64,000 nt of DNA, taken from IMG/VR virus record IMGVR_UViG_3300044296_000314; one strand, written 5' to 3'. Positions 5,492 through 30,746 of the stretch are shown one piece after another (position 1 is the stretch's first letter; the number at the start of each line of letters is the position of its first letter). The stretch is from an uncultured virus (IMG/VR IMGVR_UViG_3300044296_000314) (taxonomy: Duplodnaviria > Heunggongvirae > Uroviricota > Caudoviricetes). The position numbers and the translations under genes are program-made. The notes under the pieces are model-generated. The model ran no database searches. It had not been told where the DNA came from and was given only the letters and a program-made list of their open reading frames with translations.

Positions 5492-7120
5492 TCAGCCCAG
5501 GTTGTCTGCTTCCACCACCTCCACTTCCACCAGTTCAGATTTGGCGCGAGTCACGGCCACGTACATCAGATTCATTTCCTGTTCTACCTGCCAATCCTTC
5601 CGGGCCCACTTGCTGGGCATGTAGCGGTTGCGCCCCAGCAGGTACACCGTGTTCCACTCACGACCCTTGCTCTTGTGGACAGAGCACAACGTCAGGATAG
5701 GAGCATCGCTGTTAGTGGTGTTGCCGAACATGCTCGTGATCAGGCTGCGCAGGTCATTAATGTCGTGCCGGCCTTCTCCCTGGAGGCGTTCGCAGAGCAC
5801 CTTGAGCGTTTCCAGCTTGTCTTCCAAATTGGCCGCTTTCTCTTCCTGACCCTTGGCCTGATACCGCTGAATCTCGCGAGCACGATAGTCATCGAGCTTG
5901 TTGAGCAAAGCGGAAATGGTCCGCAGCTTCCACTTGTTGGTGATGGAGATCAGACCCTGGCCAATCTCGCGACCTTCCACGCGGCAGGGAGTGCCCTGGC
6001 GGATGAAACGGAAGGCCAGATCCACCAGGGGAGCATTCTTGCGGCAGAGGATGGCGTCAGTGGGCTTCAGCGGCAGTGTGAGGAACTCTGGGGTGGTGAT
6101 GTTGCGAACAACGCCTTCTGCGTTGGTTTCTGCGGCTTTAATGTCAGGCACCCAGGTTTGCGCCAGCTCCACGATGCGCCGTCCGCAGCGATAGGTCATA
6201 TTGAGCGGCAGCTCCTTGCTGTTGAGCTGCTGCTTGATGATGGACATGCTGTCGCTGTCTGCGCCAGTGAACCCGTAAATGGCCTGAGCTGGATCTCCAA
6301 CCGCCACCAGCCGCCCGGTGCCAGGCTTGAGAAGAGCCAGAGCCAGGGCGCGACGGGCCGGATTGGTGTCCTGGGCCTCGTCGATCATGACAAAATCTTT
6401 CTGGTAGAACCGTGCTTTGAAGTACAAGGGGGCGAGAATCATGTCATCGGAGTCGATGATGGTGGCGCACTGCTTGAGGCTCACCTGGTACACCCAGACG
6501 CAGGTCCGGACCACCAGGTCCATGTCGGCGTCCTCCGGCAAGTCTTCCTCGACGCCGAAATGGTCGACCATGTCGTACCACTGCTTGTGGTCGTTGATCG
6601 AGCAGAGCACGCCAAATGCGCGCTGCTTGGCCCAGCTCACGAGCTTGAGCACGGCTTCCCGATAAGGAGCGATGAGATCAGCTTTGTCGGGGTTGGTGCA
6701 CAAGTCGTCCAGGATCTTGCTGCACTTCTTCTCATCCACGTTGTTGCCAGCGGCAGGGTGAAGCCGGATCCATGTGCGGAACCCCACCGAGTGGAGAGTG
6801 CCTGCCTCTGCCATGGGAGGAATGCGACGCCCACCAGCTCCTTCCGTCCAGCCGTGTCCAGCTTCCTCTAGCTTGGCCTTGATTTCGGTGGCGATGGCCT
6901 TGTTGTACGCGCCGATGAAGATGGAGAGGGGCTTTCCCTGCTTCTTGGCCTGCTCAGTGAGGGCGGCGGTGAGGGAAAGAAGGGTGGAGGTCTTGCCGCA
7001 TCCAGCCCGTGCCACCAGGTTGAGGTGGCCCTTTCCGCGCAAGCCCCAGTCGATGACCGCCTGCTGTTGAACGCTGGGCTTATGGGTAGTCTGGGTGGGA
7101 TTGAGGGTGATTGTGCTCAT
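5492..7120 (-). CDS. UvrD/Rep-family SF1 helicase
   Basis: ARAGCGKT, TLHS, IDEAQD, VGDPAQAIYGFTGA, VHKSKGREW, YVAVTRAK. Confidence 0.92.
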   Translation of the reverse strand: MSTITLNPTQTTHKPSVQQQAVIDWGLRGKGHLNLVARAGCGKTSTLLSLTAALTEQAKKQGKPLSIFIGAYNKAIATEIKAKLEEAGHGWTEGAGGRRIPPMAEAGTLHSVGFRTWIRLHPAAGNNVDEKKCSKILDDLCTNPDKADLIAPYREAVLKLVSWAKQRAFGVLCSINDHKQWYDMVDHFGVEEDLPEDADMDLVVRTCVWVYQVSLKQCATIIDSDDMILAPLYFKARFYQKDFVMIDEAQDTNPARRALALALLKPGTGRLVAVGDPAQAIYGFTGADSDSMSIIKQQLNSKELPLNMTYRCGRRIVELAQTWVPDIKAAETNAEGVVRNITTPEFLTLPLKPTDAILCRKNAPLVDLAFRFIRQGTPCRVEGREIGQGLISITNKWKLRTISALLNKLDDYRAREIQRYQAKGQEEKAANLEDKLETLKVLCERLQGEGRHDINDLRSLITSMFGNTTNSDAPILTLCSVHKSKGREWNTVYLLGRNRYMPSKWARKDWQVEQEMNLMYVAVTRAKSELVEVEVVEADNLG

Positions 7121-7590: not shown

Positions 7591-7847
7591 CATCTTAACA
7601 CCACTCAATGGCGGAAGTAAAGCTGTATTTTATCGGTACCCAGTTATTTAGCGCTAACTCGTTGATAAACCACCAAATATAATTTTCCATATAGCTACTC
7701 CTCCAATATAGCGGTTAGCATTCGTTTTCGACACAGCAAACACAAGTTCAAAATCAATTTACAATCGCTGACCTGCCTGATGAGTATTTCCCTGGCATTT
7801 CGCCAGCGATTGCGCCTTGCCTGGTTTCTGGCCACAGGATGGCCAAT
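7591..7847 (-). repeat. Dispersed promoter cassette, copy 2 (TTTACT-N18-TAAGAT; IHF-consensus site at 7655-7667)
   Basis: Core nearly identical to 921-986. Confidence 0.8.
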
Positions 7848-9145
7848 CAGTTCTTCACCCAAATCAATGACTCTCGGGCACGCGTCACGGCGGTGTACAA
7901 CCAACGTTTCCGATCGTTGCCGTTCCAGTCATCACACAACACGACTTTGTTCCACTCGCTGCCTTGGCTGCTGTGAACGGTGATACCATAGCTGTAGTCA
8001 AAGTCCAAGCACCCCAAACCATATCGCACGTTGGAGTCTAGCATGATGCTCTGATCCACATGCTCAATGTCCTCATGGTAGTTGCCAATCAGGAGGCCCA
8101 GGAAGATCTCAGCAAAGGTGAAGTCATCATCACCATACTTGAGCAGAGCGCCTTCCACCGGGTGCTTCACAGGCCTGTATGGTTTTCGGCTGGTGTCAAA
8201 CTTCCAGGCGGCCAACGGCTCATCTGTCTCCACGGCGAACAAAGCACCATTCACCAATGCCGGATCCGTCTTCATTGCGTTTTGCTTGCACACTACTCGT
8301 TCGCCCGGCATGAGCAGCGACGCTCGCGCATACCCTGGACCCCACAAACGCTCTCGGAAGAAACGGTTGAGCTTATGGCGACCGTAATTGCTGCCAATCA
8401 GCACCTGGTCTGCTTCCAGGTACTCTTCTGGCGCCATCTGCGACTTGCGCCGGAGCTCGCATCCAGGGTGGCGATAGCTAGACGGCTCACAGCCTTCGCG
8501 GATCATCTGTGCCAGCGCAATGATGGGGTTATCAAGCGCTTGGCGGTGGATATGCTCCAAGCGTATATCGGCGTCGGTCTTGTGGAAAAATCCACTATCC
8601 CCTACGGGCGGCAGCTGGGCCTCGTCGCCCACGTACAGTACCTTGCGAGCACGCTCAAACAGATCTTTATGCATCTGTCGCGTCACCATGGAGGCCTCGT
8701 CGACAATGATCAAGTCTGTCTGAGATTGGTCCTCTCCCTCCTTCAGGGCAAATGACATCTTGCCTTTGATCTGGTTGCGGCGTTCTCGGTTGATTTGCTC
8801 CTGCAACGCAAAGGACGCCTCTGAGCCGACCGCCATGGATGCCAGCTTGGCTTCCATGAGGTTCAGATTATGGCGGCTGGAAGATTTCGGGGTGTACAAA
8901 TATGAGTGTATCGTGCCTATGCGCAGGAGCGGCATATTCAGCTTGCGCCGGAGCACCAGCGCAGCTTTGGCTGTGGGAGCGCACACCACCGGGTCAAGCC
9001 CCTCAGTGCGTATCCAATGGGCCAGAATAGTCGTCTTGCCGGTGCCGGCGTATCCAGCCAGCTTACACTCCGGATCTGACGATCGCAGCCAATGGTTTAG
9101 CTTCAATAGCGCCTTGTCTTGTTCATCGGTTAATCGCAAAATCAT
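7847..9145 (-). CDS. RecD/Dda-like SF1B helicase
   Basis: GYAGTGKT, CAPTAKAA, VDEASM, VGDEAQLPPV, ITVHSSQGSEW, LYTAVTRAR. Confidence 0.9.
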   Translation of the reverse strand: MILRLTDEQDKALLKLNHWLRSSDPECKLAGYAGTGKTTILAHWIRTEGLDPVVCAPTAKAALVLRRKLNMPLLRIGTIHSYLYTPKSSSRHNLNLMEAKLASMAVGSEASFALQEQINRERRNQIKGKMSFALKEGEDQSQTDLIIVDEASMVTRQMHKDLFERARKVLYVGDEAQLPPVGDSGFFHKTDADIRLEHIHRQALDNPIIALAQMIREGCEPSSYRHPGCELRRKSQMAPEEYLEADQVLIGSNYGRHKLNRFFRERLWGPGYARASLLMPGERVVCKQNAMKTDPALVNGALFAVETDEPLAAWKFDTSRKPYRPVKHPVEGALLKYGDDDFTFAEIFLGLLIGNYHEDIEHVDQSIMLDSNVRYGLGCLDFDYSYGITVHSSQGSEWNKVVLCDDWNGNDRKRWLYTAVTRARESLIWVKN

Positions 9146-9611: not shown

Positions 9612-10475
9612 TTAGAAGGCTTCCTTGCCGTCGTCCGTGGGCTTGTTGTCGACGGGTTCGGCCACCTTCACCCTGCCTTCGGACACGTCCTGCTTGAAGG
9701 ATCGCGCCTCCAGGTAAAGCTCTTGGCCGTTCTCCAGCGTCAGCGTGTCCGGACCGGGTTCGATGACCCAGCCAAACCAGTTGCCCTTGTCGTTCTTCTC
9801 CGGGCCAGTCTTGAACTTGTAGACCCGGTAAAAGCTGGGCGCCAGGATGCGCTGATTCGGAATCCGAGGATGCGGAATCCGATACGACTTCATCATCGTG
9901 TTGAGGCGACGTGAGTGCTTGAGCTGCGTGCTCGTCATGCTGAGGACGCACTGGCGCGGGTCGCCGCCGGGCACGAGCACCAGGAGGAAGTATTCCGCCG
10001 TCTGTATGATCTCGTTGCCTTCCGGCGTGATGAACCGGCCTTCTTCCTGCGTACAGCGAGCCAGACAAGCCGGGTCTTCTCCATGATCAGCCACGAACCC
10101 GCCGCCCTTTTTGCGCGGAATCCACTCGATGTGTGCGAGGCGATAGCTCACCACCAGGGCGTCGAAACCCTCGCTGCCGTCGTACAGGGTGTTGTCGATG
10201 TTGTCGAAGATGTCGCCGGGGGCGCTGTTGTCAATGTAGTTGGCGTTGCTCTTGACGATCTGATCGGAAGTGCTCTGCAAGATGGCAATGCGCGGAATGG
10301 CCAGATCATTCCGGTCCATCGTCTCCATGCCGCTTCCGGCGTCTTCCACCAGCATGTCCTCGAAGCCGGACAGCTGCTGGTTGTTAACCGTAGCCACAGC
10401 CTTTGAGTGGTGCCTTTCGGGCGGAGGGGGAGGCGCTGCCGGTGTCGTCTTCGTGGGTTTATTTTGTACTTTCAC
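9612..10475 (-). CDS. putative single-stranded DNA-binding / recombination protein
   Basis: GTG start after AGAGGAG; aromatic-rich core (KGNWFGW); acidic C-terminal tail ending in Phe (DDGKEAF). Confidence 0.6.
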   Translation of the reverse strand: MKVQNKPTKTTPAAPPPPPERHHSKAVATVNNQQLSGFEDMLVEDAGSGMETMDRNDLAIPRIAILQSTSDQIVKSNANYIDNSAPGDIFDNIDNTLYDGSEGFDALVVSYRLAHIEWIPRKKGGGFVADHGEDPACLARCTQEEGRFITPEGNEIIQTAEYFLLVLVPGGDPRQCVLSMTSTQLKHSRRLNTMMKSYRIPHPRIPNQRILAPSFYRVYKFKTGPEKNDKGNWFGWVIEPGPDTLTLENGQELYLEARSFKQDVSEGRVKVAEPVDNKPTDDGKEAF

Positions 10476-11142
10476 TTGTGGATTTTCTCCTCTTGTTGTC
10501 TTTCGGGATAGCGCACACAGCGCGTTTACCAACGTGGATGTTCAGCAAGTCAACGGGAAGATCTACGACCAACTGCGCCCCATTGTTGAGCCGTTCTTTC
10601 ACCCATGCGGTAAGCGTCTGCGCGTGGATAGTGTCCTGTCGCGTGGCGGCAAGCTTGAGCTTAGCTATGCCGGCCATTAACTCGTCAGCAACCGCGTCAG
10701 CACCACGCGGAATTTCAACGGTGACCACGTTCTTGATGAGATCCGGGTCGCCTTTGGGATGGGTACGCAGCCAGTCGAAGGCTTTGCTTCTTTGTTCGGA
10801 CAGCCTGAGGCGTTCGTCCGGGTCTCTGGTTTTGTCAATGGTGGAGGGCGCAGGTATCGAGGCGCTGACGAAATCCTCCAAATCCAGCAGAAAACCTCCT
10901 TCCAATCCTAGCTTGGTCACCTGATGGGCAGCCATCAGTTCCGGCAAGGTAACCGTTTGCAGCTGTAATAGCGTGTTTTTGGTTTTCTTCAGCTGGTACT
11001 CCAGGTCTGCGATTTCCGCTTCCAGGGTAACCAGCTCCTTTGCCTTTGCCTTAATCACACTCAAGTCACCAGAAGGACCAACGTCCTCCATGATGTCGAT
11101 GATTTGTTCAGCGGGTGGTTTCATATTCGCTTTCTTATTCAT
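10459..11142 (-). CDS. conserved phage protein (coiled coil; AFDWLR...IHAQTLTAWVKE), typical neighbour of phage SSB genes
   Basis: Recognised sequence pattern; true start may be 11124. Confidence 0.6.
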   Translation of the reverse strand: MNKKANMKPPAEQIIDIMEDVGPSGDLSVIKAKAKELVTLEAEIADLEYQLKKTKNTLLQLQTVTLPELMAAHQVTKLGLEGGFLLDLEDFVSASIPAPSTIDKTRDPDERLRLSEQRSKAFDWLRTHPKGDPDLIKNVVTVEIPRGADAVADELMAGIAKLKLAATRQDTIHAQTLTAWVKERLNNGAQLVVDLPVDLLNIHVGKRAVCAIPKDNKRRKSTSESTK

Positions 11143-17809: not shown

Positions 17810-18029
17810 TGCGTCTTTTGTGGGTTTTGGGCGTCATGGCATCGTACAAAAACCAGACTGGAGACTGGCGTTGACTTGGGGTTATCTGCAACAAAGTGGA
17901 TTGAGAGAAGGAAACATCAACCCCGTCATCAGTAGCGTTCTTGCCCACTACGGTACCCTCGCAGCCGCGATACCAGGAAGCTTGGCTGGTGATGATAACT
18001 TTTTGTCCTGGCGGAAACTTCTCTCTCAT
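17799..18029 (-). CDS. small SH3/KOW-like hypothetical protein
   Basis: FPPGQKVII...YRGCEGTVV; ATGA overlap with the HD gene. Confidence 0.5.
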   Translation of the reverse strand: MREKFPPGQKVIITSQASWYRGCEGTVVGKNATDDGVDVSFSQSTLLQITPSQRQSPVWFLYDAMTPKTHKRRIDK

Positions 18030-18595
18030 CGTGGCTCCTGCATCTCCTCTGAGGTGAGGTAGTGACTCCATTCTTGGATTTCCGTCATCAAAGAAATAAT
18101 GCGGAAATGAATTGCGGCATTCCCAGACAACTCAACTTGGTAGTCATTGAGCTGATTACGCAAATGACGACCTATGTTGTTAAGAACAATTCTGGCGCCC
18201 AACTCACCGTTGTTCAGTCGGTTTTGCGAAAGCGCCATTAGTTCCATACCGTCAGCAATCTTCAGCACAAGAAGCTCAAACGACGTGAGCGTTTTCTCGT
18301 AGTCCTTGAAGCCCATGTCGTTGCGCGCATTATCCTCAGCCAAGGCGAAGGCTTTGTAGGCGTCCGGTGATCGCCACTTGGCGGGGGCTGGTATATCGCC
18401 CACCTCCTGCTCCCCTAGATCATGTTGAAGAGCAGCCAGAATCAGTTCTTTGCGGCAATCCGGCCAGATGCGTTGAATCATCATAGCCACTCCCCAACTA
18501 TGAGCAGCCACGGTTTGAAAACGCATAGGCGCGCAATGGAGGCGTTCCACTTCTCCTCCCAGCATAAGACGTTGAACGTGCCAATTTCCGGTCAC
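18026..18595 (-). CDS. HD-domain 5'-deoxynucleotidase (YfbR-like)
   Basis: QTVAAHSWGV, ALQHDLGE, GDIPAPAK, KIADGME. Confidence 0.85.
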   Translation of the reverse strand: MTGNWHVQRLMLGGEVERLHCAPMRFQTVAAHSWGVAMMIQRIWPDCRKELILAALQHDLGEQEVGDIPAPAKWRSPDAYKAFALAEDNARNDMGFKDYEKTLTSFELLVLKIADGMELMALSQNRLNNGELGARIVLNNIGRHLRNQLNDYQVELSGNAAIHFRIISLMTEIQEWSHYLTSEEMQEPR

Positions 18596-18992: not shown

Positions 18993-20063
18993 TCAGCTCA
19001 TGGGCGTTGCGTCGCCTTGCGCCGAACTCCTGCCGGACTCTCGCCGATCGAGCCATCGCGAAGCAGCAATCACCCAATCCGTGTTCTGCATGGCGTAGTA
19101 GGCCAAGGCTTTGCGAGCTTTGTCAAAATCCTTCGACCGATACGCAGCGTAGGCCAGCGCCAACGGGGCGGCCACCGTTTGCAAAAAGCTGTTCTTGAAG
19201 AAACCGACATTGCTGATGGCTGCGGCCAAAAGTCGTTCATCTTCCACGAGTTCCAAGAACGTGGTCAATTCCCCGTCAAACGAATCCACGCAGTCTACCA
19301 GCGGCTGGGCCACGCCACTATAGCCAACAGACCGGACGTCGATTTGCTGCTTGGACCACACATCACGGTAGGCATGCCAGTTGTTGCTTACCTGACAGTA
19401 CCATCCCAGTTCCAGTCCGACTTGCGCCGCGATGTACTCCTGCAGCATACTCATGTGGACGACGTTGGCGCCGTAGCAGCCCCAAACAATGTCGTTGGAG
19501 CGGTTGGTGACTGTCATGTTCAACTTGCCGAGACGCGCATCCAGGTAGAGAGCCGTATTGCACGGCAAGTCTTTTGGCACAGAGCCGCGCACTGCAATTT
19601 CCTCTGGCGACCAAAAGTCAGCGCGAGGATCCCACATTTGGATCACAACGCGTCGCGACTTTGGGTCCGCCCGCAAGCACTGGATGGCCTTGTTGATCTG
19701 GTCAGTTCCATCCTCGTTGTCTTCCATGTCGAAGTGGTGGCGCCAACGGTATCCGTATGCGCCGTGGAAGATCAGACCGTCATCGCTGAAGCTCTGCATC
19801 CGCTTATTAAAGCGAGACACAAAGGCGACGTCATTGCGTCCGGCAATCATCCACAAGGCCTCCATCAAATGGAAGAACGGATTGGCATCCCGCACCGGAT
19901 CAGTCAGCACTCGCAGCATAGGATTGGCATAGTGAGTAGTGACGGGTTCCGGGTGCATCACCACCTCTCCGGCGCGAGAGGAGCAAATTTCTCCCTCAGC
20001 GGACAGCAGCAGCTTAGCTTGTTGCCAAGCATCATCAATGGACAGGGCACGTATTACTTTCAT
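18993..20063 (-). CDS. thymidylate-synthase-fold dUMP hydroxymethylase (putative)
   Basis: ANPFFHLMEALWM, GAYGYRWR, DLPCN (catalytic Cys), RSND, GAN (Asn at the uracil-specificity position); adjacent to hmdU-kinase genes. Confidence 0.85.
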   Translation of the reverse strand: MKVIRALSIDDAWQQAKLLLSAEGEICSSRAGEVVMHPEPVTTHYANPMLRVLTDPVRDANPFFHLMEALWMIAGRNDVAFVSRFNKRMQSFSDDGLIFHGAYGYRWRHHFDMEDNEDGTDQINKAIQCLRADPKSRRVVIQMWDPRADFWSPEEIAVRGSVPKDLPCNTALYLDARLGKLNMTVTNRSNDIVWGCYGANVVHMSMLQEYIAAQVGLELGWYCQVSNNWHAYRDVWSKQQIDVRSVGYSGVAQPLVDCVDSFDGELTTFLELVEDERLLAAAISNVGFFKNSFLQTVAAPLALAYAAYRSKDFDKARKALAYYAMQNTDWVIAASRWLDRRESGRSSAQGDATPMS

Positions 20064-20070
20064 ATGGTTC

Positions 20071-20280
20071 CTAGCTTACCTTCTTAGACTGGCGAAGTAA
20101 ATCAGATTGTGTTGATAAAGTTACCTCCGGAAGCTGTCCCTCTGCAGGGGCCGTCGACAAGGGCACCTCTACTGAGAAAGGTCGTGGCTTTTTGTTTCTC
20201 AGAGCTTTCAATGCTTTGGCTTTGCGCCGTTTATCGCGACCTTTCATTGCTTTCCTTTCCATGTTCGGTACCGCTTCCAC
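20071..20280 (-). CDS. small basic hypothetical protein
   Basis: ORF tiling; start uncertain. Confidence 0.4.
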   Translation of the reverse strand: MEAVPNMERKAMKGRDKRRKAKALKALRNKKPRPFSVEVPLSTAPAEGQLPEVTLSTQSDLLRQSKKVS

Positions 20281-20450
20281 TTCTCTGTTAAGAAGCAGAC
20301 GAGATTGCCGAACAAATCAGCCGACCATAGACGCAACAGTTGCGACAAGGCCATAAGGGCCGATAGCAGGACGAGTAGACCCATAAGGGCCATTCCCAAC
20401 CCCAATAGTACCAAAATTATACACAAAACTTCTCGTACTACTTGCGTCAT
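20244..20450 (-). CDS. small membrane protein
   Basis: Long hydrophobic stretch from MTQVVREVL; starts right after the upstream stop. Confidence 0.45.
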   Translation of the reverse strand: MTQVVREVLCIILVLLGLGMALMGLLVLLSALMALSQLLRLWSADLFGNLVCFLTEKWKRYRTWKGKQ

Positions 20451-20451
20451 T

Positions 20452-21453
20452 TTAACCCTCATCTTCCCGGTCGCTGCTTCTGGTGCTGTACGGCTGGAAC
20501 GTGGCTCGAGGCCTGCCTTCTCCGAGCTTGACGCGCAGATACTTGTCCGTTTCGCACAAAGAATGTTCAATATCTCGCATCTCCAACTGAGCTTTGAGTT
20601 CCCATTTGTTGGTGCGCCCGTTTCCGCCACTCGATCCGGTGGTATCAAAGTTCACTGCATCCGGTCGCACCCAATTGGGAAGGTTCTTCCGAGACTCAGA
20701 CAGCAAGTATTGCATCTCCTCAATAGCCTGCTCTCGCCGCAGATCTTTCTTCACAGGCCTCCCAAATAGCCTGTTTAAGCCGCGCTTCGCCCCCGGCCCA
20801 GGGTTAGCCCATGTCATGATGTCGGGAGCATTGCAGAGGTATCGCGTATGGCGCAGATCGGTGGCCACCTCATAGGCCAGAAAGCCGCCCCAGCCGTGAA
20901 AGTTTTCCAACCACTCAGTAACCTTCTGGATGGAGGAAAACGGCTCACCTTGCTCCGGCATGCCGTGGTATTCTCCTTGACCCACCTTCCACACCGGATC
21001 CAACACTTTGAAGCATGTGTAGGAAGGTTTGTCATTCAGCGTACCGTCATTCTTCTGAATGTCGCCGCGCAGCATATACGCGCCCGTGTATACTTTCTTG
21101 CCGTGCTGGGCACGGTACCGCATGCTGACGCAAGCCCTGGCAGGATCCCAGCGATCAGGCAGACCGGACTCCACCAGGGTTTCCGCTAGGGTGGGTGGCC
21201 AGTTGATTTGACGGGCCAGACACATCAGGAACCAGAGGTTGGGATGGTCAGCATATGGCTTGCGCATATGCTCGTTGATCCAGCGCGTGACCCGGTCGTT
21301 TTCCCGGAACACGTTACAGAAAGCGTAGGTGCGCAGGATCTCGTCTTTGGTCCAATACTCACGAGGAGCGCCGGCAAGACGCTTGAGGTAGATGCTCTGG
21401 CGCTCTGATATCCAGTACCAAAACGGATCAAAATTGGAGGATGGGAGGCTCAT
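20452..21453 (-). CDS. 5-hmdU DNA kinase helical-domain protein (aG/T-pyrophosphorylase clade 1)
   Basis: FWYWISERQSIY..WTKDEILRTYAFCNVFRENDR, GFLAYEVATDL, GPGAKRGL, DIEHSLCETDKY. Confidence 0.85.
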   Translation of the reverse strand: MSLPSSNFDPFWYWISERQSIYLKRLAGAPREYWTKDEILRTYAFCNVFRENDRVTRWINEHMRKPYADHPNLWFLMCLARQINWPPTLAETLVESGLPDRWDPARACVSMRYRAQHGKKVYTGAYMLRGDIQKNDGTLNDKPSYTCFKVLDPVWKVGQGEYHGMPEQGEPFSSIQKVTEWLENFHGWGGFLAYEVATDLRHTRYLCNAPDIMTWANPGPGAKRGLNRLFGRPVKKDLRREQAIEEMQYLLSESRKNLPNWVRPDAVNFDTTGSSGGNGRTNKWELKAQLEMRDIEHSLCETDKYLRVKLGEGRPRATFQPYSTRSSDREDEG

Positions 21454-21462
21454 GATAGTCCT

Positions 21463-22206
21463 TTACTCGTTCCAGCAGAAGATGTTGCGATCGAAAAATG
21501 TTTTGCCGAATTCTTCTCCGGTGTCAATCAGTCGGTCGAATTCGGGCGGATAGCTTACGTGAGAGAACATGGCCTGAAGTATACCCAGGCGACGCTTGAG
21601 ATTGAACAGCGACTTGTCCCTGGAGAGGTGGTACTCCATGACCAGCTTATTGACTTTGGGGAGATAACCGTGATCCAGCAGCAAGCCCTCGCTGCCCTCG
21701 ATGTCCATTTTAAGACCATCATACCCTTCCAAGGAGGCAAATTTCTCGCCAAACATATTGTTGACGGTAACTCCGCTGGTGTAGTTGGATGGAATCGTGA
21801 GGGTGCCGCGAGAATGAACGCCTTCTCGTTTGGGAGCAAACAGCGGCAGCGTCTCGTTGGTAAAAGCACTTACGGCTTTCTGCTCCAGAATCCACTCCAT
21901 CTTCTTGATGCGGTCTGCGTTCGACTGGAGAATCTTGAAGCAATCCGGGTCAGGCTCAAAGCACGCCACCAATTCGGCGCCACGAACGTCACAGTAAGTG
22001 AGGAAAGCCCCAACGTTGGCTCCCAGGTCAATCCATTTTTCACCCGGTTCCACATCAAACTTGGACTTGGCGCGTCGATAGGCGCGATTGGTCAGCACCT
22101 CTTTGAACACGTTCTCGTCGCTGGTGCCTGGTCGCACAAATACCTTTCTGGCGGCCATCGTGCCATCCAACTTGGTGTAGTCAAATGACTTGAGTACTGG
22201 CTTCAT
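21463..22206 (-). CDS. FkbM-family SAM-dependent methyltransferase
   Basis: RPGTSD, WIDLGANVGAF, FEPDPD, LKMDIEGSE, VMEYH. Confidence 0.85.
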   Translation of the reverse strand: MKPVLKSFDYTKLDGTMAARKVFVRPGTSDENVFKEVLTNRAYRRAKSKFDVEPGEKWIDLGANVGAFLTYCDVRGAELVACFEPDPDCFKILQSNADRIKKMEWILEQKAVSAFTNETLPLFAPKREGVHSRGTLTIPSNYTSGVTVNNMFGEKFASLEGYDGLKMDIEGSEGLLLDHGYLPKVNKLVMEYHLSRDKSLFNLKRRLGILQAMFSHVSYPPEFDRLIDTGEEFGKTFFDRNIFCWNE

Positions 22207-22739
22207 TGAGCATCCTTTCGTATCGCTCGCACTCGGCTCATTCTCAAGTGTACTCGAGTGCTTGTCTGAGGTTTGGGCGTATAGCTGGTAAATCCAATCT
22301 TCCTGAAAAATGCAATTGCATCTTTGTTGTGAATATGGACAGAAGTGCGCAGCTCATCTTTGGCGGTTCGCATCCAGGCCCATCTAATCAGCTTTCTGCC
22401 TAATTGACGGCGCTGGCGTTTGGAAGTCACCGCTATGGTAGATATGTAGTCCCAAGAGTCGCTCATGTGTGGGCATAGTACCAGCAACCCCGTCACTACT
22501 TTATCTTCCAGCAAAGCGCACACATACTCTTGCTTGATTAAACGAGTGACGGGGGCGATAGAACGCCAGCCGCTGGTAAATCGAGATTCCAAGGCTATGC
22601 GCGACAGCGCCTCCATCTCAGACATTATCGCTGGCAACAACTCTCGTTTCTCGACTTGGTCGGAAGTTAGTTCCATGGGTTTGCGTCGTCCCCAATCTTG
22701 GAACAGCACCGGGTTGCGTTTCTTGATCGTACGAGGCAT
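22203..22739 (-). CDS. GNAT acetyltransferase
   Basis: YISTIAV..QRRQLGRKLI (acetyl-CoA motif), NKDAIAFFRKIGF. Confidence 0.8.
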   Translation of the reverse strand: MPRTIKKRNPVLFQDWGRRKPMELTSDQVEKRELLPAIMSEMEALSRIALESRFTSGWRSIAPVTRLIKQEYVCALLEDKVVTGLLVLCPHMSDSWDYISTIAVTSKRQRRQLGRKLIRWAWMRTAKDELRTSVHIHNKDAIAFFRKIGFTSYTPKPQTSTRVHLRMSRVRAIRKDAQ

Positions 22740-22757
22740 TACGTGTACTCTTGGAAG

Positions 22758-23390
22758 CTACAGCCAGTCATTAGCAATCAGACGGCGGGTTAGTTCCTCT
22801 CCGTCCATTTCTCTTACATCAAGCTGTCGCTCCAGCAGTTTATCGCGCACCCGCGCCATCAACCGCCATTTATCCCGCGTGTTGGTTTCGTCCAAGGTCT
22901 TGTTGTTGCCTTTGGCTAACCGGCGACTTTTGACCCGTTCTACGCACATCTCTTCTGGGGTGTTGAGGAACACAAACATCATGCGTTCTCTCTCAAGGCT
23001 CAAAGACTCAGCCAAATCGGCCCAACGACCGACAATGGTTGAGATGAGCAGCCCCTCGAACAATACGTGGTAATCTTGCTGGTGCCATCGGCGCACCCGC
23101 GACGTGACCTCATCTTGGGTCTTGATTCCGTCACATCCGCCGCAAGGGGTGAGATACTTACCTACGATCCGAAGCGGAACTTTGTACGGATGAAGGTTAG
23201 AATTCCATTTTCCAATCTGATACCCGATCTGCCCAGCCGCCCCTTCATGGGAAAGATCGCTTACTTGCTCGAACCCGTCCGGGCCTTGAATAACTACATA
23301 CAACTCGCCCAGCTCCTTGTAATGCCGCATCAAATTGAAAACTACAGTGCTCTTGCCGCTGCCGCTGGTGCCGCGAATGTTTATGATCAT
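22758..23390 (-). CDS. P-loop kinase, putative 5-hmdU DNA kinase catalytic subunit
   Basis: IRGTSGSGKST, GKY..CGGCD, VLFEGL, LNTPEEMCVERVKSRR. Confidence 0.8.
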   Translation of the reverse strand: MIINIRGTSGSGKSTVVFNLMRHYKELGELYVVIQGPDGFEQVSDLSHEGAAGQIGYQIGKWNSNLHPYKVPLRIVGKYLTPCGGCDGIKTQDEVTSRVRRWHQQDYHVLFEGLLISTIVGRWADLAESLSLERERMMFVFLNTPEEMCVERVKSRRLAKGNNKTLDETNTRDKWRLMARVRDKLLERQLDVREMDGEELTRRLIANDWL

Positions 23391-23569
23391 CGTCTACTCC
23401 TCAGGTAGTAATGGAATCCCACTAAGCCTGCGAGCAGGGACACGGAGTGGAAGAAACTCAATACCGCTCGCAGGTCAGAGGACATGTCAGCAAAGGCGAT
23501 GATGATCGCCAGCGCCAAAAATAGCAGACCGTATATCTGCAACAACGTTTTCTGCTTGCTAGTTATCAC
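23387..23569 (-). CDS. small two-TM membrane protein
   Basis: Two hydrophobic segments; overlaps both neighbours. Confidence 0.55.
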   Translation of the reverse strand: MITSKQKTLLQIYGLLFLALAIIIAFADMSSDLRAVLSFFHSVSLLAGLVGFHYYLRSRR

Positions 23570-23906
23570 GTCGAACTCCTTTGGCGCAAACAGGGCAGGT
23601 AATGGAGGTGCCGGCGATCAAACCACAGGCAGAGCACTCTTTACAAACCGGACAGGATTCCACCCCACGGTACTGTTTCCGACAGCCAGGACAGTTGATC
23701 ACATAGATACTGTCCAAGTATCCGATGATGGCGTCAAGCTTGTATTCCACCACCTTTAAGTTGCGGTTCATCCAGGCCTTCACGTTTGGACCTGTGGGCG
23801 AAGAACCTGGATGAAGTCGAATGTACTCTTCGTGGAGTAGCGACACGATGAGATGGCTGATTGCCCGGCTGGGCAGCATCTGGTGTATTTGCGTAGGAGC
23901 GCTCAT
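23559..23906 (-). CDS. hypothetical protein with C-terminal multi-CxxC zinc ribbon
   Basis: CPGC, CPVC, CSAC, CPVC. Confidence 0.55.
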   Translation of the reverse strand: MSAPTQIHQMLPSRAISHLIVSLLHEEYIRLHPGSSPTGPNVKAWMNRNLKVVEYKLDAIIGYLDSIYVINCPGCRKQYRGVESCPVCKECSACGLIAGTSITCPVCAKGVRRDN

Positions 23907-24263
23907 TTAGGCCTTTCCAGAGGGAACCACAACGCCTGGAGGCGCGTCTTGGTCGTTGGTAGAGGTAGAGCTGGCGATGCGAGGATCATCAGCGTCCACA
24001 AAGACTATGGAATTGGTACCGCTCATGACGGTCGATTCGGTGGCGATGAGTCGAGCAGGTTTGACCACATACATCGTGCAACCCATGATCGTACCAAGAA
24101 CGCGAGTCTCTCGCACTACCAAATTCTGGTTTACACAATGAAGCGGTATCTCCGCATATGCCCCACGCACACCCCGTTTACGGGCGCGTACTACCTCAAA
24201 CCCCAAAAACGAGGTAGTCAACGTCAGAATAAGGAACAGTACCAATGTTGCCGGGTAGCTCAT
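23907..24263 (-). CDS. membrane-anchored hypothetical protein
   Basis: Likely start MSYPATLVLFLIL overlaps the upstream stop. Confidence 0.5.
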   Translation of the reverse strand: MSYPATLVLFLILTLTTSFLGFEVVRARKRGVRGAYAEIPLHCVNQNLVVRETRVLGTIMGCTMYVVKPARLIATESTVMSGTNSIVFVDADDPRIASSTSTNDQDAPPGVVVPSGKA

Positions 24264-25081
24264 GCTAGCGACCTGCTCAAATTGTTGGCGTAAACGCCTG
24301 CCAGAGCCATCCCAGACTTGCCGCCACCCGTAGCCACCCAAAGGTTGGGAGAAATGCGCCGCAGGCCGTTATTGAGGTAAGGGCGCAATCCCCGCTGAAT
24401 GTCCAGGCTCTTGTACTTGAAATCGACGTGCTTCATCACACGGTCTTTGATCATGACCTCTCGAGCTTCACTCCAATTGGTCGGTATGATGGCGCTGCCG
24501 TCGCCCATCCACACGCGACCCGGCCCGTGTGCTGTGCGCACTATCTGCTTGTACGGCAGATAGCTGATGATGCGATTCTCTGGTGGATTCTGCTTGGGCA
24601 CGCCGCTGAACGTGAAGCTCATGCCCTTTTTGGCCGACAGCTCAGCTTTGATTTCCGGCACTAGCTCACCAGACCACACGCCAGAAGCAACGATGATGGT
24701 ACCATGTACCCGATGGCTCTCCCCGTCGCACGTCAAATTCTCATAGTCCAGGAAGCCATCACCTACTTGAGTAACTTTTGCCGGCAGCACTTCTCCGGAT
24801 TGGAGCACCTTGTCTACGTCGACCCGCAGAAGGTCAACGTGCACCAGACCGTAGACACAGCGTAGGGTTTCCAGTGCGTACAGTTCGTCCAACGTGCGAA
24901 AGGATTCCTCCATGACCTTCTTGTCCAGAAAGCTGAGCCAGCTGGGCTTGAGGTGACCGCCGGATGGTTTGGACCCGGACTGTGCAAAGCGCGCATCAAA
25001 CACCTGCACTTTGTGACCGTCTCGCCGAAGTTTGGCCGCTATGACTTGTCCAAAGATGCCAGCTCCTACTATGTGTACCAC
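24260..25081 (-). CDS. FAD-dependent oxidoreductase (glycine-oxidase/DAO-like)
   Basis: GTG start after AAGGAG; HIVGAGIFG Rossmann motif, IIVASGVWS, GLRPY, ATGGGKSG. Confidence 0.85.
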   Translation of the reverse strand: MVHIVGAGIFGQVIAAKLRRDGHKVQVFDARFAQSGSKPSGGHLKPSWLSFLDKKVMEESFRTLDELYALETLRCVYGLVHVDLLRVDVDKVLQSGEVLPAKVTQVGDGFLDYENLTCDGESHRVHGTIIVASGVWSGELVPEIKAELSAKKGMSFTFSGVPKQNPPENRIISYLPYKQIVRTAHGPGRVWMGDGSAIIPTNWSEAREVMIKDRVMKHVDFKYKSLDIQRGLRPYLNNGLRRISPNLWVATGGGKSGMALAGVYANNLSRSLA

Positions 25082-25195
25082 GGAATTTCTCCTTGTTGTG
25101 TTTTCTACGCGGCTGCCGCACAACCCTGGTGTAGCTGGTGGCAGCCGCATAAGTAATGTCTAGCCAGCGGTGATTGTTTTGGATCGGGATAACAA

Positions 25196-25591
25196 TCAAC
25201 CCACTATATAACGATGCCTGTGCGGCACCAGTATGCGCCAATTGTACCAGGGGAGGCGTGAGCGCGGCTGCCAGTTCGAGCTGGGAGCACAAGACGCCGC
25301 AGATTCAATCACCTCTGGTGATTCAATGGGCGTCCTTACGGCAATGAAGGCTGAATCAGCTTCCTGCCGAAACCTGTCTGCTCGTAAGTAAGACGGATGG
25401 TCTTCGCAAAACTCTGGGATGCGCACCCATGACTTGCCGGATTGGAGATTTATTCCGACAGCCATTACGGTGCCTTGCAACTCATAAACAATAAGACGCA
25501 GAGGAGTTGTTTCCGCAGCCGTTGTCACCACAATACCGCAAACGGTCACTTCTACGGGCGGTTCTAGCACAGCATCGAGTATTACAGGCAT
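25196..25591 (-). CDS. hypothetical protein
   Basis: ORF tiling in the modification operon. Confidence 0.5.
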   Translation of the reverse strand: MPVILDAVLEPPVEVTVCGIVVTTAAETTPLRLIVYELQGTVMAVGINLQSGKSWVRIPEFCEDHPSYLRADRFRQEADSAFIAVRTPIESPEVIESAASCAPSSNWQPRSRLPWYNWRILVPHRHRYIVG

Positions 25592-26403
25592 GTTGCTCCG
25601 CTGCTGGGAAGATAACTAACCATGCGTTGTGCCAATTCTCCCCAGCCGCAAAGCCCATTCCGAATTTCGTGGGTGTCGTGCCCCACTTCGTAGTGGCCCT
25701 TTACATGGGATTTCCACTTGCACAGCACGGTCTCGTACTCGAAGATGTTCAATTTTCTCTGCTTTTGTGGAGGAGCCAGGCGATCTCCCAGGTGCTCAGC
25801 TAGGTGGCCCAACGCCTTGTCTAACTGTTGCCGTTGGTTGAGTATGGGCTCCGAAGGCAAGTTACGTTCGCACCACATCTGTGCGCCTTTGACTGGTTCA
25901 GCGTAAACGGACAGATTGGCGCCAGTCAGGTCTAGCTCCAAGCCTAACACTGCTTGAGCCATGTCGCACACTTTGAACGAGATCCAAGGTCCAAATTGCA
26001 CCCAGGTTTGGATGGCGGCGTTGAGTTCTGAGAACGAACGATACTGGCGCAAGTACGGCAGCAATCGGATTGGGTCCGCGAACCTCTGGTGTAGATCCGA
26101 TACACCATCTATGGCGTTTTGGGCTCTGAAGTGGCGACGTTCCGCTGAGCGCGGCCACTGGTTGGGACTGTTTTTAGCAGCAATTCGCATATGTTCCCAA
26201 AACTCTGGGGCCTTCATTTCGGAAAGTTTGCATGCTACTCCGCAATGGTAGAAACACCAGTAAGCGAGCAGCCAACGTGACAGCTGAGGCTCCGACAACT
26301 GCGCCTTGTGGAGCATGATGTAGACCGGATCGAGGTCTTCGGTGGCCAGTAACTGACGTCCAAATTCTTCGATCTCCAGCCGCTGGTACGATTGGCTGCT
26401 CAT
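25582..26403 (-). CDS. amino acid:DNA transferase (aG/T-pyrophosphorylase clade 2)
   Basis: DLDPVY, RWLLAYWCFYH, WPRSAERRHFR, FGPWISFKVCDM, ETVLCKWKSH. Confidence 0.85.
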   Translation of the reverse strand: MSSQSYQRLEIEEFGRQLLATEDLDPVYIMLHKAQLSEPQLSRWLLAYWCFYHCGVACKLSEMKAPEFWEHMRIAAKNSPNQWPRSAERRHFRAQNAIDGVSDLHQRFADPIRLLPYLRQYRSFSELNAAIQTWVQFGPWISFKVCDMAQAVLGLELDLTGANLSVYAEPVKGAQMWCERNLPSEPILNQRQQLDKALGHLAEHLGDRLAPPQKQRKLNIFEYETVLCKWKSHVKGHYEVGHDTHEIRNGLCGWGELAQRMVSYLPSSGATCL

Positions 26404-26457: not shown

Positions 26458-27192
26458 TTACTCAGACAGCGCTTGGTCCAGTTCCATGGAGACCTTGATG
26501 AGGCAACTAGCCTGTTTCAACCCCAATATGAATCCGTGGGCGAACTCCGGTGTCGGAGCATGAGCGGTGGAATTCTCCGCCCAATTAAGTTCAGTTTCGA
26601 TCATACGGTGGCACATGGCAGGAGTCGTGGTGTTTTCTCCATAAGCCACACGGGCTTCCACAGCAAAAGCGCGGTCAATGCTGTCGGCGGGAAACTCACC
26701 CAATCGCAACCGCAAAAAGGGAAGACGGTAGTTGATGGGTTTCTGGGCTTCGAGAATGGGTTTGATGTCTGCCGGCGAATAGGTTGGGGGCTTCAACACT
26801 TTGCCAGTTTCCGAACGCTGGATGCGCGGCCCTTCTTTCCACTCCTTGCTCATGTTGCTGCGCTGAATTTCCTCGAAGACAGGTCCGATGTCAATGCCGC
26901 ACGCTACGGCAGTGCCGTACACCACGTACAACAAATCTCCGATGGCATCAGCGATCTCGGTCAGGTCCGGGTTTCCTGTGCATGCCGTGATCTGCTCCCC
27001 AGGGGTGACCCGGAAAGCCTCAGACAGTTCGCGAAGCTCTTCCTGAATCAGCTCCAGGCGCAGGCGCATGGTGGTGTCAGAGGGCACGGTAGGCAGACTT
27101 GGCGTGTCCTGCTCAAAGAGCTGCATAAAAGCGGCCACTTGGGCCTGTTGGCGAATCATGTGTATTTCTCCTATTAATTCAACTTTATCCAC
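26458..27192 (-). CDS. MazG-like/PRA-PH all-alpha NTP pyrophosphohydrolase with C-terminal extension
   Basis: LIQEELREL, EIADAIGDLLYVVYG, EEIQRSNMSK, GKVLKP; start may be 27159. Confidence 0.85.
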   Translation of the reverse strand: MDKVELIGEIHMIRQQAQVAAFMQLFEQDTPSLPTVPSDTTMRLRLELIQEELRELSEAFRVTPGEQITACTGNPDLTEIADAIGDLLYVVYGTAVACGIDIGPVFEEIQRSNMSKEWKEGPRIQRSETGKVLKPPTYSPADIKPILEAQKPINYRLPFLRLRLGEFPADSIDRAFAVEARVAYGENTTTPAMCHRMIETELNWAENSTAHAPTPEFAHGFILGLKQASCLIKVSMELDQALSE

Positions 27193-28932: not shown

Positions 28933-29000
28933 CTACTCCTCCAATCCTGGTATTCTATTGGCTGCTGGCGGGGCAGGGAGGGTGGGGCTAGAGTGCTCGG

Positions 29001-29249: not shown

Positions 29250-30746
29250 TTATAACCTCACTCCTCGCATTAAAGTAAAAAAGTAGTTGTCGTTAGTATC
29301 AGGGGTCTGTAAATACAAATTTTCTCGTACCCTTGTCAGCGCCACGTATAGGATACGCAACTCATCTTGATGACCAAACTCATCGGCATCAGCTTCCGCA
29401 TGTCGTTTTACCGCGCCAGAGTAACTGGTCAACAAAGCAACGTTGTCGGCTTCTGTGCCCTTGCTTTCATGAATCGTCAATAGGCGGATACGGCCCGTAG
29501 GCTGAGCCAGTTCCTGATTGAACTGGAGCCGTCGATAGTATTCTCCGTACACCAAAGGTATTGTTGGATAAGCCTGGCTCCACGGCACCTCTCGCATACG
29601 ATCGGGCACTGGCCAGCGTCTGGCGTGATAGCGCGTCATAATGCGCTTGTCGCCATGATTAGGCTGCTCCCCGGTGGCGCGATAGTGCTCCCAGGCGCGT
29701 ATGACTCGCATTTCCGGGCAGTAGTGGCTCCATTCCCCTCGAAACCAATAAGCGAAACCTTGACCGTGTAGAAACTCCGCCGCCTGACGAAGCTGGTACT
29801 GATGTCGAGCCAACACCAACCACTCTCCTTGCGAGAAGTCCAGATCTGTTATGCTGGTGAAGAGCTTAATGCCGCCGCTGTTGTCACTGCGAGGCTGGAT
29901 GTTCTTGGGTACTCGCTGTTTCAGGCGCTTCGCAATCGTTTGACTCAGGGTGAGAATATCCTTGGGCAAGCGATGACTAACGCGCAGACGGTCCACTTTT
30001 GACGGATTAGCTGCAGCGTATTCAACCAACAGCTTGGCAGAGGCTCCAGCGAACCCGTAAATGGTTTGATCATCGTCGCCTACAATGAGCATTTCTTCGG
30101 CGTTGACCGTGAGACGCTGAACCATTTCCCATTGTTGCGGAGTAAGATCCTGCGCCTCGTCCACAAATATGTGACTTACTTCTGGTGGAAATGGAGTGTC
30201 ACACTCATCAATCAAGTCAGAGAAATCCTTTAATCCATACTGGCGCTTGTAGCGCTGGTACTCTTCTGCAAAGGCCTCGATGTCTCGCAGCTGCAGCTGG
30301 GTCTGATGGGCCACATCACTGTAATACTCTGCCACACTCAAGTTCATTGACCTCGCAGATTGGGCCAGGAACATTGCCTCATTGCTCCAGTGGTGTCGCT
30401 CAGTATCCTGGAAGCGGAAACCCAAACGCTTGGCGTTGATTTCGTATCCGGTGAGCTGATTGAATCGCTGCAGTTCCCGATCCGTCATGATAGTATCTCG
30501 TCGCATCTCACTCAATCGGAACGCGCAAGAATGCAGTGTACGGAACCAGGGTGTGGCGGAGCGTGGGAGGTCTAGACGCCGCAAAGCTTCGCGCACGGCA
30601 TGCTTGGAAAATGTGGTGAAGGCGATATGTTCGGTCGGCACTCCAGAGGCCACCAGCTTGCGAATCTCGTTGAGAATGAACGAGGTCTTGCCGGTGCCTG
30701 GGGCGCCAAATACCACACGAACCCTGGGAACGTTAAAGTGAAGCAC
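29250..30746 (-). CDS. UvrD-like SF1 helicase coupled to the primase gene
   Basis: GAPGTGKT, FRTLHS, VDEAQDL, VGDDDQTIYGFAGA, TIHESKGTEAD, YVALTR. Confidence 0.9.
   Translation of the reverse strand: MLHFNVPRVRVVFGAPGTGKTSFILNEIRKLVASGVPTEHIAFTTFSKHAVREALRRLDLPRSATPWFRTLHSCAFRLSEMRRDTIMTDRELQRFNQLTGYEINAKRLGFRFQDTERHHWSNEAMFLAQSARSMNLSVAEYYSDVAHQTQLQLRDIEAFAEEYQRYKRQYGLKDFSDLIDECDTPFPPEVSHIFVDEAQDLTPQQWEMVQRLTVNAEEMLIVGDDDQTIYGFAGASAKLLVEYAAANPSKVDRLRVSHRLPKDILTLSQTIAKRLKQRVPKNIQPRSDNSGGIKLFTSITDLDFSQGEWLVLARHQYQLRQAAEFLHGQGFAYWFRGEWSHYCPEMRVIRAWEHYRATGEQPNHGDKRIMTRYHARRWPVPDRMREVPWSQAYPTIPLVYGEYYRRLQFNQELAQPTGRIRLLTIHESKGTEADNVALLTSYSGAVKRHAEADADEFGHQDELRILYVALTRVRENLYLQTPDTNDNYFFTLMRGVRL

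Follow-up and report, generated by a model that had tools for sequence, protein, structure and literature searches.

An additional FkbM-type methyltransferase in a PaMx11-type thymidine-hypermodification operon of an uncultured tailed phage: a candidate second route to a modified DNA base

What would a methyltransferase do in a phage operon that already appears equipped to build an acetylated amine on the thymine positions of its DNA? The question is raised by the window analyzed here, a stretch of 64,000 nucleotides from an uncultured tailed virus (Caudoviricetes; IMG/VR record IMGVR_UViG_3300044296_000314), in which seven modification genes lie within positions 18993–26403, all on the minus strand and with intergenic gaps of −85 to +171 bases. 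They encode an amino acid:DNA transferase (AADT), a FAD oxidoreductase, a P-loop kinase, a GNAT acetyltransferase, an FkbM-type S-adenosylmethionine (SAM) methyltransferase (hereafter MT), a protein of the HMUDK_hel family, and a thymidylate synthase (TS)-family enzyme. A preliminary description, made from the sequence alone, had named these seven genes and seen in them the pathway of Pseudomonas phage PaMx11 plus one extra enzyme; the list of open reading frames (ORFs) and the Pfam and PHROG searches bear out their presence, positions, and common direction. Our preferred reading, to which we give a probability of roughly 0.38, is that the MT and HMUDK_hel form a module that O-methylates 5-hydroxymethyl-deoxyuridine (hmdU) in DNA beside the amine branch, the acceptor atom and the part played by HMUDK_hel being guesses. 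The broader proposition, that the MT yields some undescribed thymine-derived DNA base (5-methoxymethyl-dU, 5-methylaminomethyl-dU, or the N-acetyl form of the latter), seems to us rather probable, and the MT and HMUDK_hel may together constitute a kinase-free second route of thymidine hypermodification next to a PaMx11-type amine branch.

O-methylation of hmdU is favored because the amine-branch genes are mostly missing from the loci of the MT clade and because precedent among FkbM enzymes points the same way. Loci of MT relatives were taken from viral contigs and metagenomes and annotated with Pfam and with locally built hidden Markov models (HMMs). The local HMMs detected HMUDK_hel in 19 of the 144 MT-bearing loci, a TS-like gene in 19, the kinase in seven, the transferase in six, and the flavin lyase in four. 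A maximum-likelihood tree of 37 distinct MT rows (L022, L072, and L075 were dropped for length and four others as duplicates) places the window in a clade of 18 rows with support 100/99, which makes 20 loci when the duplicates L013 and L014 are counted. HMUDK_hel lies at most 500 bp from the MT in 17 of these 20 loci, the three exceptions being L003, in which it is 15 kb off on the same contig, L068, a contig of 1.8 kb, and L071, in which none occurs in 11 kb. The two genes come in two arrangements: kinase, MT, HMUDK_hel (the window, L002, L005, L011, L015, and L070), or HMUDK_hel and then MT, sometimes with one ORF in between (L001, L006–L010, L012–L014, L016, and L069). The preliminary description had proposed a survey of synteny between FkbM genes and amino acid:DNA transferases; what the survey ties to the MT is HMUDK_hel, whereas the transferase is present in only six of the 20 clade loci, the kinase in seven, and the flavin lyase in four, and GNAT, among the clade loci scanned, in the window only.

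The contrast is clearest in the kinase-less cassettes of hydroxymethylase, HMUDK_hel, and FkbM MT found in L001, L006, L008–L010, L012–L014, L016, and L069. Their MT belongs to the same clade (36–49% identity) and likewise stands beside HMUDK_hel and a TS-like gene, but they have no kinase, transferase, flavin lyase, or GNAT, whereas the window joins the MT module to what looks like a complete amine branch. This junction, GNAT included, is the feature that would set the window apart, and it is apparently retained in a sister phage. Among 50 viral contigs searched whole, PF18723 (the HMUDK_hel family) matched 16, namely the 15 closest and the contig of L024, which lies outside the clade in the tree; four of the 16 have PF18724 (the transferase family) and six have PF18748 (the kinase family), and the transferase-free contigs include G002, rated 92% complete, and G024, rated 99% complete. 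A search of five kinase-less contigs with the second kinase family, PF18747, gave no match, in a scan in which this family matched nothing anywhere and had no positive control. The most constant partner of the MT is the TS-like gene, which also accompanies outgroup MTs that lack HMUDK_hel (L025, L027, and L038). We conclude from these neighborhoods that the MT is linked to thymidine-modification clusters and is not there by chance.

The opposite view would have the MT unrelated to the thymine derivative, methylating a protein, a host metabolite, or another position in DNA and hitch-hiking in the replication module. It could appeal to a fold that does not reveal the substrate, to the separation of the MT from HMUDK_hel in L003 and L071, and to the fusion of related viral FkbM domains with modules of the radical SAM/SPASM or glycosyltransferase type. 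We nevertheless hold it to be quite improbable. Of the 19 clade loci that are informative, 17 have the MT beside HMUDK_hel, in phages that are divergent and with the gene order rearranged. Nor was the clade seen in cellular genomes: a search of representative genomes for 185,579 bacterial and archaeal species retained 80 loci, the top ones being only 22–35% identical to the MT. To judge from these searches, the MT clade is confined to viruses.

Some of the clade loci contain other genes worth recording. In L071 (495–3104), which has no HMUDK_hel nearby, the MT is preceded by a ParB_N protein and by an ORF of 433 aa that resembles radical SAM enzymes. In L070 (5575–9738), a TET-associated glycosyltransferase (PF20691, 4e-12) immediately precedes the series transferase, kinase, MT, HMUDK_hel, the lyase being 6.5 kb off. 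DUF6551 (DndB/ParB-like) occurs in or near the clusters of L005 (6503–7339, between flavin lyase and kinase) and L012 (1725–2576).

In the pathway that we propose, whose amine-branch steps are drawn by homology from the reconstituted PaMx11 enzymes and whose methylation step is drawn from gene distribution, the TS-family enzyme would make 5-hmdUMP, with MazG-like and HD enzymes helping to exclude dTTP, and hmdU would then be incorporated into DNA. The P-loop kinase would phosphorylate hmdU in DNA, the transferase would replace the phosphate with glycine, the flavin lyase would cut the glycine adduct down to 5-aminomethyl-dU (5-NmdU), and GNAT would acetylate the latter to 5-acetamidomethyl-dU (5-AcNmdU). 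The FkbM-type MT would stand outside this branch and form a module with the neighboring HMUDK_hel, a protein with a conserved Cys and a presumed base-flipping HhH-like fold. Its target would be the 5-hydroxymethyl group of hmdU in DNA, the handle common to all contexts, and its product would be 5-methoxymethyl-dU, formed on residues left untouched by the kinase route. On this scheme the virion would carry DNA with two derivatives of thymine, whose nucleosides have nominal masses of 299 (5-AcNmdU) and 272 (5-methoxymethyl-dU); those of hmdU and 5-NmdU are 258 and 257.

As for precedent, 30 FkbM enzymes of characterized clusters comprise, in the text of the two sources, 29 O-methyltransferases (four by experiment and 25 by inference) and a single N-methyltransferase (PMC9259500, PMC9811515). 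O-methylation of hmdU had been offered in the preliminary description only as an alternative; it appears to fit both this precedent and the distribution of the clade better than the activity that had been put first, N-methylation of the aminomethyl group. The other alternative that had been offered, methylation of the glycyl carboxyl, was rejected as a main reading and is unlikely, most MT loci having no transferase. We also considered that the MT might be an activating enzyme in place of the kinase, and set this aside on chemical reasoning, methanol being no better a leaving group than water.

N-methylation deserves closer scrutiny, as several of our observations speak for it. The MT would in this case convert 5-aminomethyl-dU into 5-methylaminomethyl-dU (271 u), a DNA analog of tRNA mnm5U, and GNAT may then acetylate the N-methylated base to 5-(N-methylacetamido)methyl-dU (313 u). 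Transferase, flavin lyase, kinase, and MT are combined in the window, L002, L005, and L070, the last three without an acetyltransferase, which mirrors the logic of MnmC; where an MT locus has the transferase and sufficient flanking sequence, the lyase is present in four cases out of five. MnmC makes tRNA mnm5U with a FAD oxidase domain and a SAM methyltransferase domain, and the window likewise encodes a FAD enzyme together with a SAM methyltransferase; what the two share is a FAD enzyme whose task is to strip the carboxymethyl portion from a glycine adduct at uracil C5, and PaMx11 gp47 is described in the text of PMC8989533 as a homolog of MnmC1. One FkbM enzyme, as noted above, is an N-methyltransferase (PMC9259500). 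In contrast to MnmC, the window MT is of FkbM type, is a separate gene rather than a fused domain, is mostly found without a FAD enzyme, and would act on DNA. A Pfam scan of the MT gave no match to the MnmC2 family; since its only match is to PF05050, the resemblance to MnmC is one of logic and not of family membership.

What makes N-methylation possible but rather unlikely in our estimation is that the transferase is missing from 14 of the 20 clade loci and the lyase from 16, near-complete genomes included. The association of lyase and MT is also less recurrent than the four loci suggest. The window MT groups (94/81) with those of L005 and L011, which both have the kinase, L005 having the transferase and flavin lyase too, and a second subclade formed by L002, L070, and L015 also carries the transferase; the four lyase loci thus fall in two MT subclades and represent at most two independent associations. 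When the MTs of full-pathway loci and of minimal cassettes were compared, no alignment column was fixed differently, the conserved residues outside the SAM site being common to both. Finally, the closest relatives of the flavin lyase, which are also the only two found among viruses (L066, 49% identity, and L067, 35%), have neither an FkbM MT nor a GNAT. Both lyase-relative clusters (L066, 1031–6242; L067, 5–6403) contain a pair of 5-hmdU DNA kinase genes in tandem along with unknown ORFs; L067 further has an HNH-like gene and a gene for a low-molecular-weight phosphatase.

Several points count against O-methylation of hmdU as the role of the MT. The substrate and acceptor atom of the MT rest on an indirect basis, and the fold searches list class I methyltransferases generally. 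At least two lineages of the tree have the MT together with the amine branch, and in three of these loci the MT is the sole candidate enzyme to act after the lyase. The GNAT stop overlaps the MT start by four bases and a sister phage probably keeps both genes, which fits two enzymes working on one substrate and is as such a further argument for N-methylation. The MT, with a pI of 6.5, lacks a basic character, and many of the contigs counted as "minimal" are fragmentary. M6 gp55, the aGPT-Pplase1 of Pseudomonas phage M6, could be omitted when the pathway was reconstituted and was dispensable in vitro (text of PMC8989533).

The partner of the MT, HMUDK_hel (20452–21453, minus strand; PF18723, 5e-51), had been described as an hmdU-kinase helical-domain protein. 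The gene is indeed there, but it is not part of the kinase: it is a separate protein, aGPT-Pplase1, that appears to be a paralog of the transferase. The protein is 34% identical to PaMx11 gp50, 44% to the copies of M6- and PaMx11-like phages, and 45% to the copy of L005, and Cys300-Glu301 and Lys304 are invariant in 14 HMUDK_hel sequences. An hhalign comparison with the AADT profile gave a probability of 89.5% (E 2e-6, 207 columns) and placed the LCE of HMUDK_hel on the LCK of the transferases, with its Cys on the catalytic Cys. Residue 296, four positions before the Cys and equivalent to the catalytic Glu of the transferases, is Glu in nine of the 14 sequences, Gln in four (L001, L005, L007, and L012), and Pro in one (L011). 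The structural model (pLDDT 81) had PaMx11 gp46 (8z2n) as its best VIA match (Z 11.5, root mean square deviation [rmsd] 3.9 Å, 228 residues; also Z 10.6), followed at Z 9–10 by an enzyme of queuine salvage and by DNA glycosylases of the HhH type; for a helical protein all these Z values are modest by themselves, and Foldseek alone gave no significant match with this model. The profile match and the VIA matches support the view that HMUDK_hel is an HhH-fold paralog of the transferase; the model and the retained residues suggest that it is catalytically competent, rather than an appendage of the kinase.

Such a paralog might also be a second group transferase, adding some nucleophile to hmdU or 5-PmdU, with the MT methylating the added group; the product would then be neither methoxymethyl-dU nor methylaminomethyl-dU. 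The Cys aligned with that of the transferases, the invariant Glu adjoining it, and the place of the gene next to the MT, which 17 of the 20 clade loci show and which holds for either gene order, can be cited for this possibility. We regard it as improbable, however, given that all M6- and PaMx11-like phages without MT have HMUDK_hel, that the window copy is as similar to these MT-free copies as to that of L005, with no sign of specialization, and that many cassettes have no kinase found to activate the base. The DNA of M6 virions, moreover, reportedly contains T and 5-NedU only.

The stage at which methylation would occur must be considered as well, because the MT could act before replication on free 5-hmdUMP or its di- or triphosphate, the adjacency to HMUDK_hel reflecting only a conserved gene slot. 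Two outgroup loci, L024 (7132–10309) and L025 (7935–10253), have a cassette of a nonclade FkbM MT, then a dNMP/thymidylate-kinase-like gene, and then a TS-like gene, a layout that suggests action on the nucleotide pool. The L024 cassette is accompanied by HMUDK_hel; L025, a complete 40-kb genome with terminal repeats, has no HMUDK_hel, transferase, or kinase. FkbM enzymes act mostly on small molecules, as the text of PMC9259500 has it, and the absence of a basic character in the MT would also suit a free nucleotide. Against this, the kinase and transferase route of the window requires hmdU in DNA, with which pool methylation would compete, and a role in the pool would not account for the close association with an HhH protein of DNA type. 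We therefore consider action on the pool decidedly improbable, and keep O-methylation of hmdU in DNA as the preferred reading.

The assignment of the MT (21463–22206, minus strand) to the FkbM type is drawn from several lines of evidence. The window protein scores 18.4 bits with PF05050, below the cut-off of 22.7, and matches phrog_8156 ("methyltransferase," 6e-12); all 17 relatives scanned exceed the PF05050 cut-off, with 23.3–49.9 bits. A glycine-rich motif I and K-x-D-x-E-G-x-E after strand 4 define the FkbM family, and an alignment of 14 MT sequences shows DLGANVGAF, FEPDP, and KMDIEGSE with little or no variation. The AlphaFold model (pLDDT 88.9) has a class I SAM-methyltransferase fold, and its comparison with the FkbM structure 2py6 gave Z 11.8 and an rmsd of 3.0 Å over 165 aligned residues, with 19% identity, the highest in the list; the Atlas structure search named PF05050 for the aligned part. 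We rejected the fold as a guide to the substrate, since Foldseek and VIA both returned a flat list of class I methyltransferases (TM below 0.52, Z 11–13). Searches by sequence with the profile of the MT clade found no solved relative, and neither did those with the profile of HMUDK_hel.

A protein search with the MT at a threshold of E ≤ 1e-20 returned at least 101 clusters, all metagenomic, whose naming stops at "FkbM family methyltransferase"; the closest relative, at 81% identity, is encoded on a contig of 76,249 bases. No fusion of HMUDK_hel and MT was seen among the longer proteins searched, a fusion search being weak evidence. Fusions of other kinds were observed: a 779-aa protein, P0001, contains Radical_SAM together with an FkbM domain that shares 36% identity with the window MT, and the Atlas contains a viral SPASM and FkbM cluster of 167 members and viral glycosyltransferase–FkbM fusions of 634–908 aa.

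The closest known system to the rest of the operon is the 5-AcNmdU pathway of PaMx11 (PMC8989533, PMC11472151). According to the text of PMC8989533, gp46 is a glycine:DNA transferase, gp47 a flavin-dependent lyase that converts Nα-GlyT to 5-NmdU, gp48 an acetyltransferase, gp49 the 5-hmdU DNA kinase, gp50 aGPT-Pplase1, and gp51 the dUMP hydroxymethylase. The annotated order in PaMx11 is UvrD, nrdB, nrdA, and gp45–gp52, onward to PolA. The genes gp46–gp51 are syntenic with the window, and the overall gene order and strand are alike. Window proteins are 39% identical to gp46, 30% to gp47, 35% to gp49, 34% to gp50, 40% to gp51, and 35% to gp55, the PolA, and gp52 is also matched. With homologs of gp46, gp47, gp49, gp50, and gp51, a syntenic order, and retained catalytic residues, the PaMx11-type pathway stands as it had been described. 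PaMx11 differs from the window in having no FkbM-type MT, whereas the window has one between GNAT and the gp50 homolog, and in lacking the additional small ORFs present in the window.

Individual enzymes of this branch could be assigned with some precision. The transferase (AADT or aGPT-Pplase2; 25582–26403, minus strand) matches PF18724 (6e-22) and the PDB sequences 25qc (1e-62) and 8z2m (PaMx11 gp46; 3e-55); its E224 and C228 align with the catalytic E243 and C247 of gp46 and an R-H-x-R motif is retained, so that it is probably a glycine:DNA transferase, the donor being taken from the homolog. The FAD oxidoreductase (24260–25150, minus strand; PF01266, 4e-18) matches the "flavin-dependent lyase" entries 8z79/8z2o over residues 25–294 (1e-29) and has a GAGIFG motif (GxGxxG) at residue 29. 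For these two enzymes, the solved structures of PaMx11 gp46 and gp47 rank with the best PDB matches by sequence. The predicted 5-hmdU DNA kinase (22758–23390, minus strand) matches PF18748 (1e-9) and has the Walker A sequence GTSGSGKS. The TS-family enzyme (18993–20063, minus strand) matches PF00303 (8e-20) and phrog_5131 (1e-106), and its closest solved relatives are CMP 5-hydroxymethylases (5b6d, 65 bits), thymidylate synthases scoring at most 42 bits; we infer that it is a dUMP hydroxymethylase. Two accessory enzymes flank the set on the same strand: a MazG/PRA-PH-like nucleotide pyrophosphohydrolase (26458–27192; PF01503, 1e-16; phrog_671, 5e-33), which presumably clears the dNTP pool, and an HD-domain 5′-deoxynucleotidase-like protein (18026–18595; PF13023, PF12917), 36% identical to the gp52 region of PaMx11.

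The GNAT acetyltransferase (22203–22739, minus strand) is the least PaMx11-like member of the set. That it is a GNAT is well supported by PF13508 (35.4 bits, cut-off 27) and by PF00583 and PF13673, both also above their cut-offs, but the likeness to gp48 that the PaMx11 scheme would imply amounts to 34% identity over just 50 residues (pairwise E 2.5e-4), and the window gene is placed after the kinase whereas gp48 is placed before it. A search of the whole collection of phage records gave no match for this protein and no relatives were found in the viral contigs; only two relatives, at 63% and 62% identity, were found in 5.8 billion proteins. The 62% relative (P0105), the only one of the two on a contig of some size, and the 81% relative of the MT are both located on a contig of 76,249 bases, probably one and the same, which points to the sister phage referred to above.

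The comparison with M6 shows which parts of the operon are general and which are not. The 5-NedU cluster of M6 consists of the transferase gp51, the pyridoxal phosphate (PLP) decarboxylase gp52, the radical SAM isomerase gp53, the kinase gp54, and the aGPT-Pplase1 gp55. M6 and the window share a core next to PolA that comprises kinase, transferase, aGPT-Pplase1, and hydroxymethylase, with identities of ~40% for the transferase and ~43% for HMUDK_hel; the PLP and radical SAM genes are not in the window, which instead has the flavin lyase, GNAT, and MT.

The remaining predicted ORFs of the operon, all on the minus strand, have no Pfam or PHROG family match. They are a 69-aa basic ORF between HMUDK_hel and the hydroxymethylase (20071–20280), three small ORFs of 144, 115, and 60 aa (23387–24341), and a 131-aa ORF between the transferase and the flavin lyase (25196–25591). 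Within 23387–23906, the 115-aa ORF is Cys-rich, with four Cys pairs (CPGC, CPVC, CSAC, and CPVC), and resembles a zinc ribbon, and the 60-aa ORF is strongly hydrophobic. Scans for promoters and terminators gave counts not above those of shuffled sequence.

At the scale of the genome, the window has the organization of a tailed phage, with a left arm (~1–32.3 kb, minus strand) of replication and nucleotide-metabolism genes and a right arm (plus strand from 33.2 kb) of terminase, portal, and tail genes. A tRNA scan of the window found no tRNA genes. The replication arm includes four helicase genes, SNF2-type (2780–4507), UvrD-like (5492–7120 and 29250–30746), and Dda/RecD-like (7847–9145), and proteins like Pam3 gp33/gp34 are encoded at 9612–11142. 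The DNA of the cluster has no near-identical match among phage records, and the PolA is at most 37% identical to that of any phage record; the record closest to it, G001, represents part of this phage only, from position 28985 on, and leaves the cluster uncovered. For the GNAT of the window, the longest contig recorded in the protein database has 69,604 bases. Given the lack of a record matching the cluster DNA and the low identity of PolA, the window is best described, from its sequence, as an uncultured tailed phage of ~69.6 kb and a distant relative of the Pseudomonas phages M6, YuA, and PaMx11.

We searched the literature on thymidine hypermodification for a precedent of the MT. The texts of six papers (PMC8989533, PMC11472151, PMC13458397, PMC9599517, PMC12191111, and PMC13229309), exclusive of their supplements, which may hold gene-neighborhood tables, contain no methyltransferase step, in agreement with the preliminary description, which had placed the MT outside the published scheme; nor do the same texts contain methoxymethyl- or methylaminomethyl-dU in phage DNA. 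The kinase-less cassettes described above did not appear in the papers searched either. O-methyltransferase and GNAT domains are listed among the neighbors of phage T-dioxygenases, with no function assigned, in the text of PMC13229309, and a synthetic 5-mNmdU standard, isobaric with 5-NedU, did not match the M6 base in that of PMC5889632.

By gene content, order, and conserved residues, this is thus a real PaMx11-type operon with a real, pathway-linked additional MT, and the phage DNA probably holds a methylated thymine derivative; if so, it is probably a new natural DNA base. The published tailoring of thymidine positions relies on kinases, amino acid:DNA transferases, PLP, radical SAM, and flavin enzymes, and acetyltransferases, to which a SAM methyltransferase would add a new chemistry. 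The constant pairing of HMUDK_hel with the MT also opens a way into the puzzle of aGPT-Pplase1, a protein that every thymidine-hypermodifying phage retains but that proved dispensable in vitro. For experiments, the window is the most informative case, as the presence of amine branch and MT together can separate O- from N-methylation. With at least 101 MT clusters, and none seen in cellular genomes, the base could be common in environmental phages, in which case it would bear on how phages evade restriction, on the enzymes by which modified DNA is read or cut, and on artifacts in sequencing.

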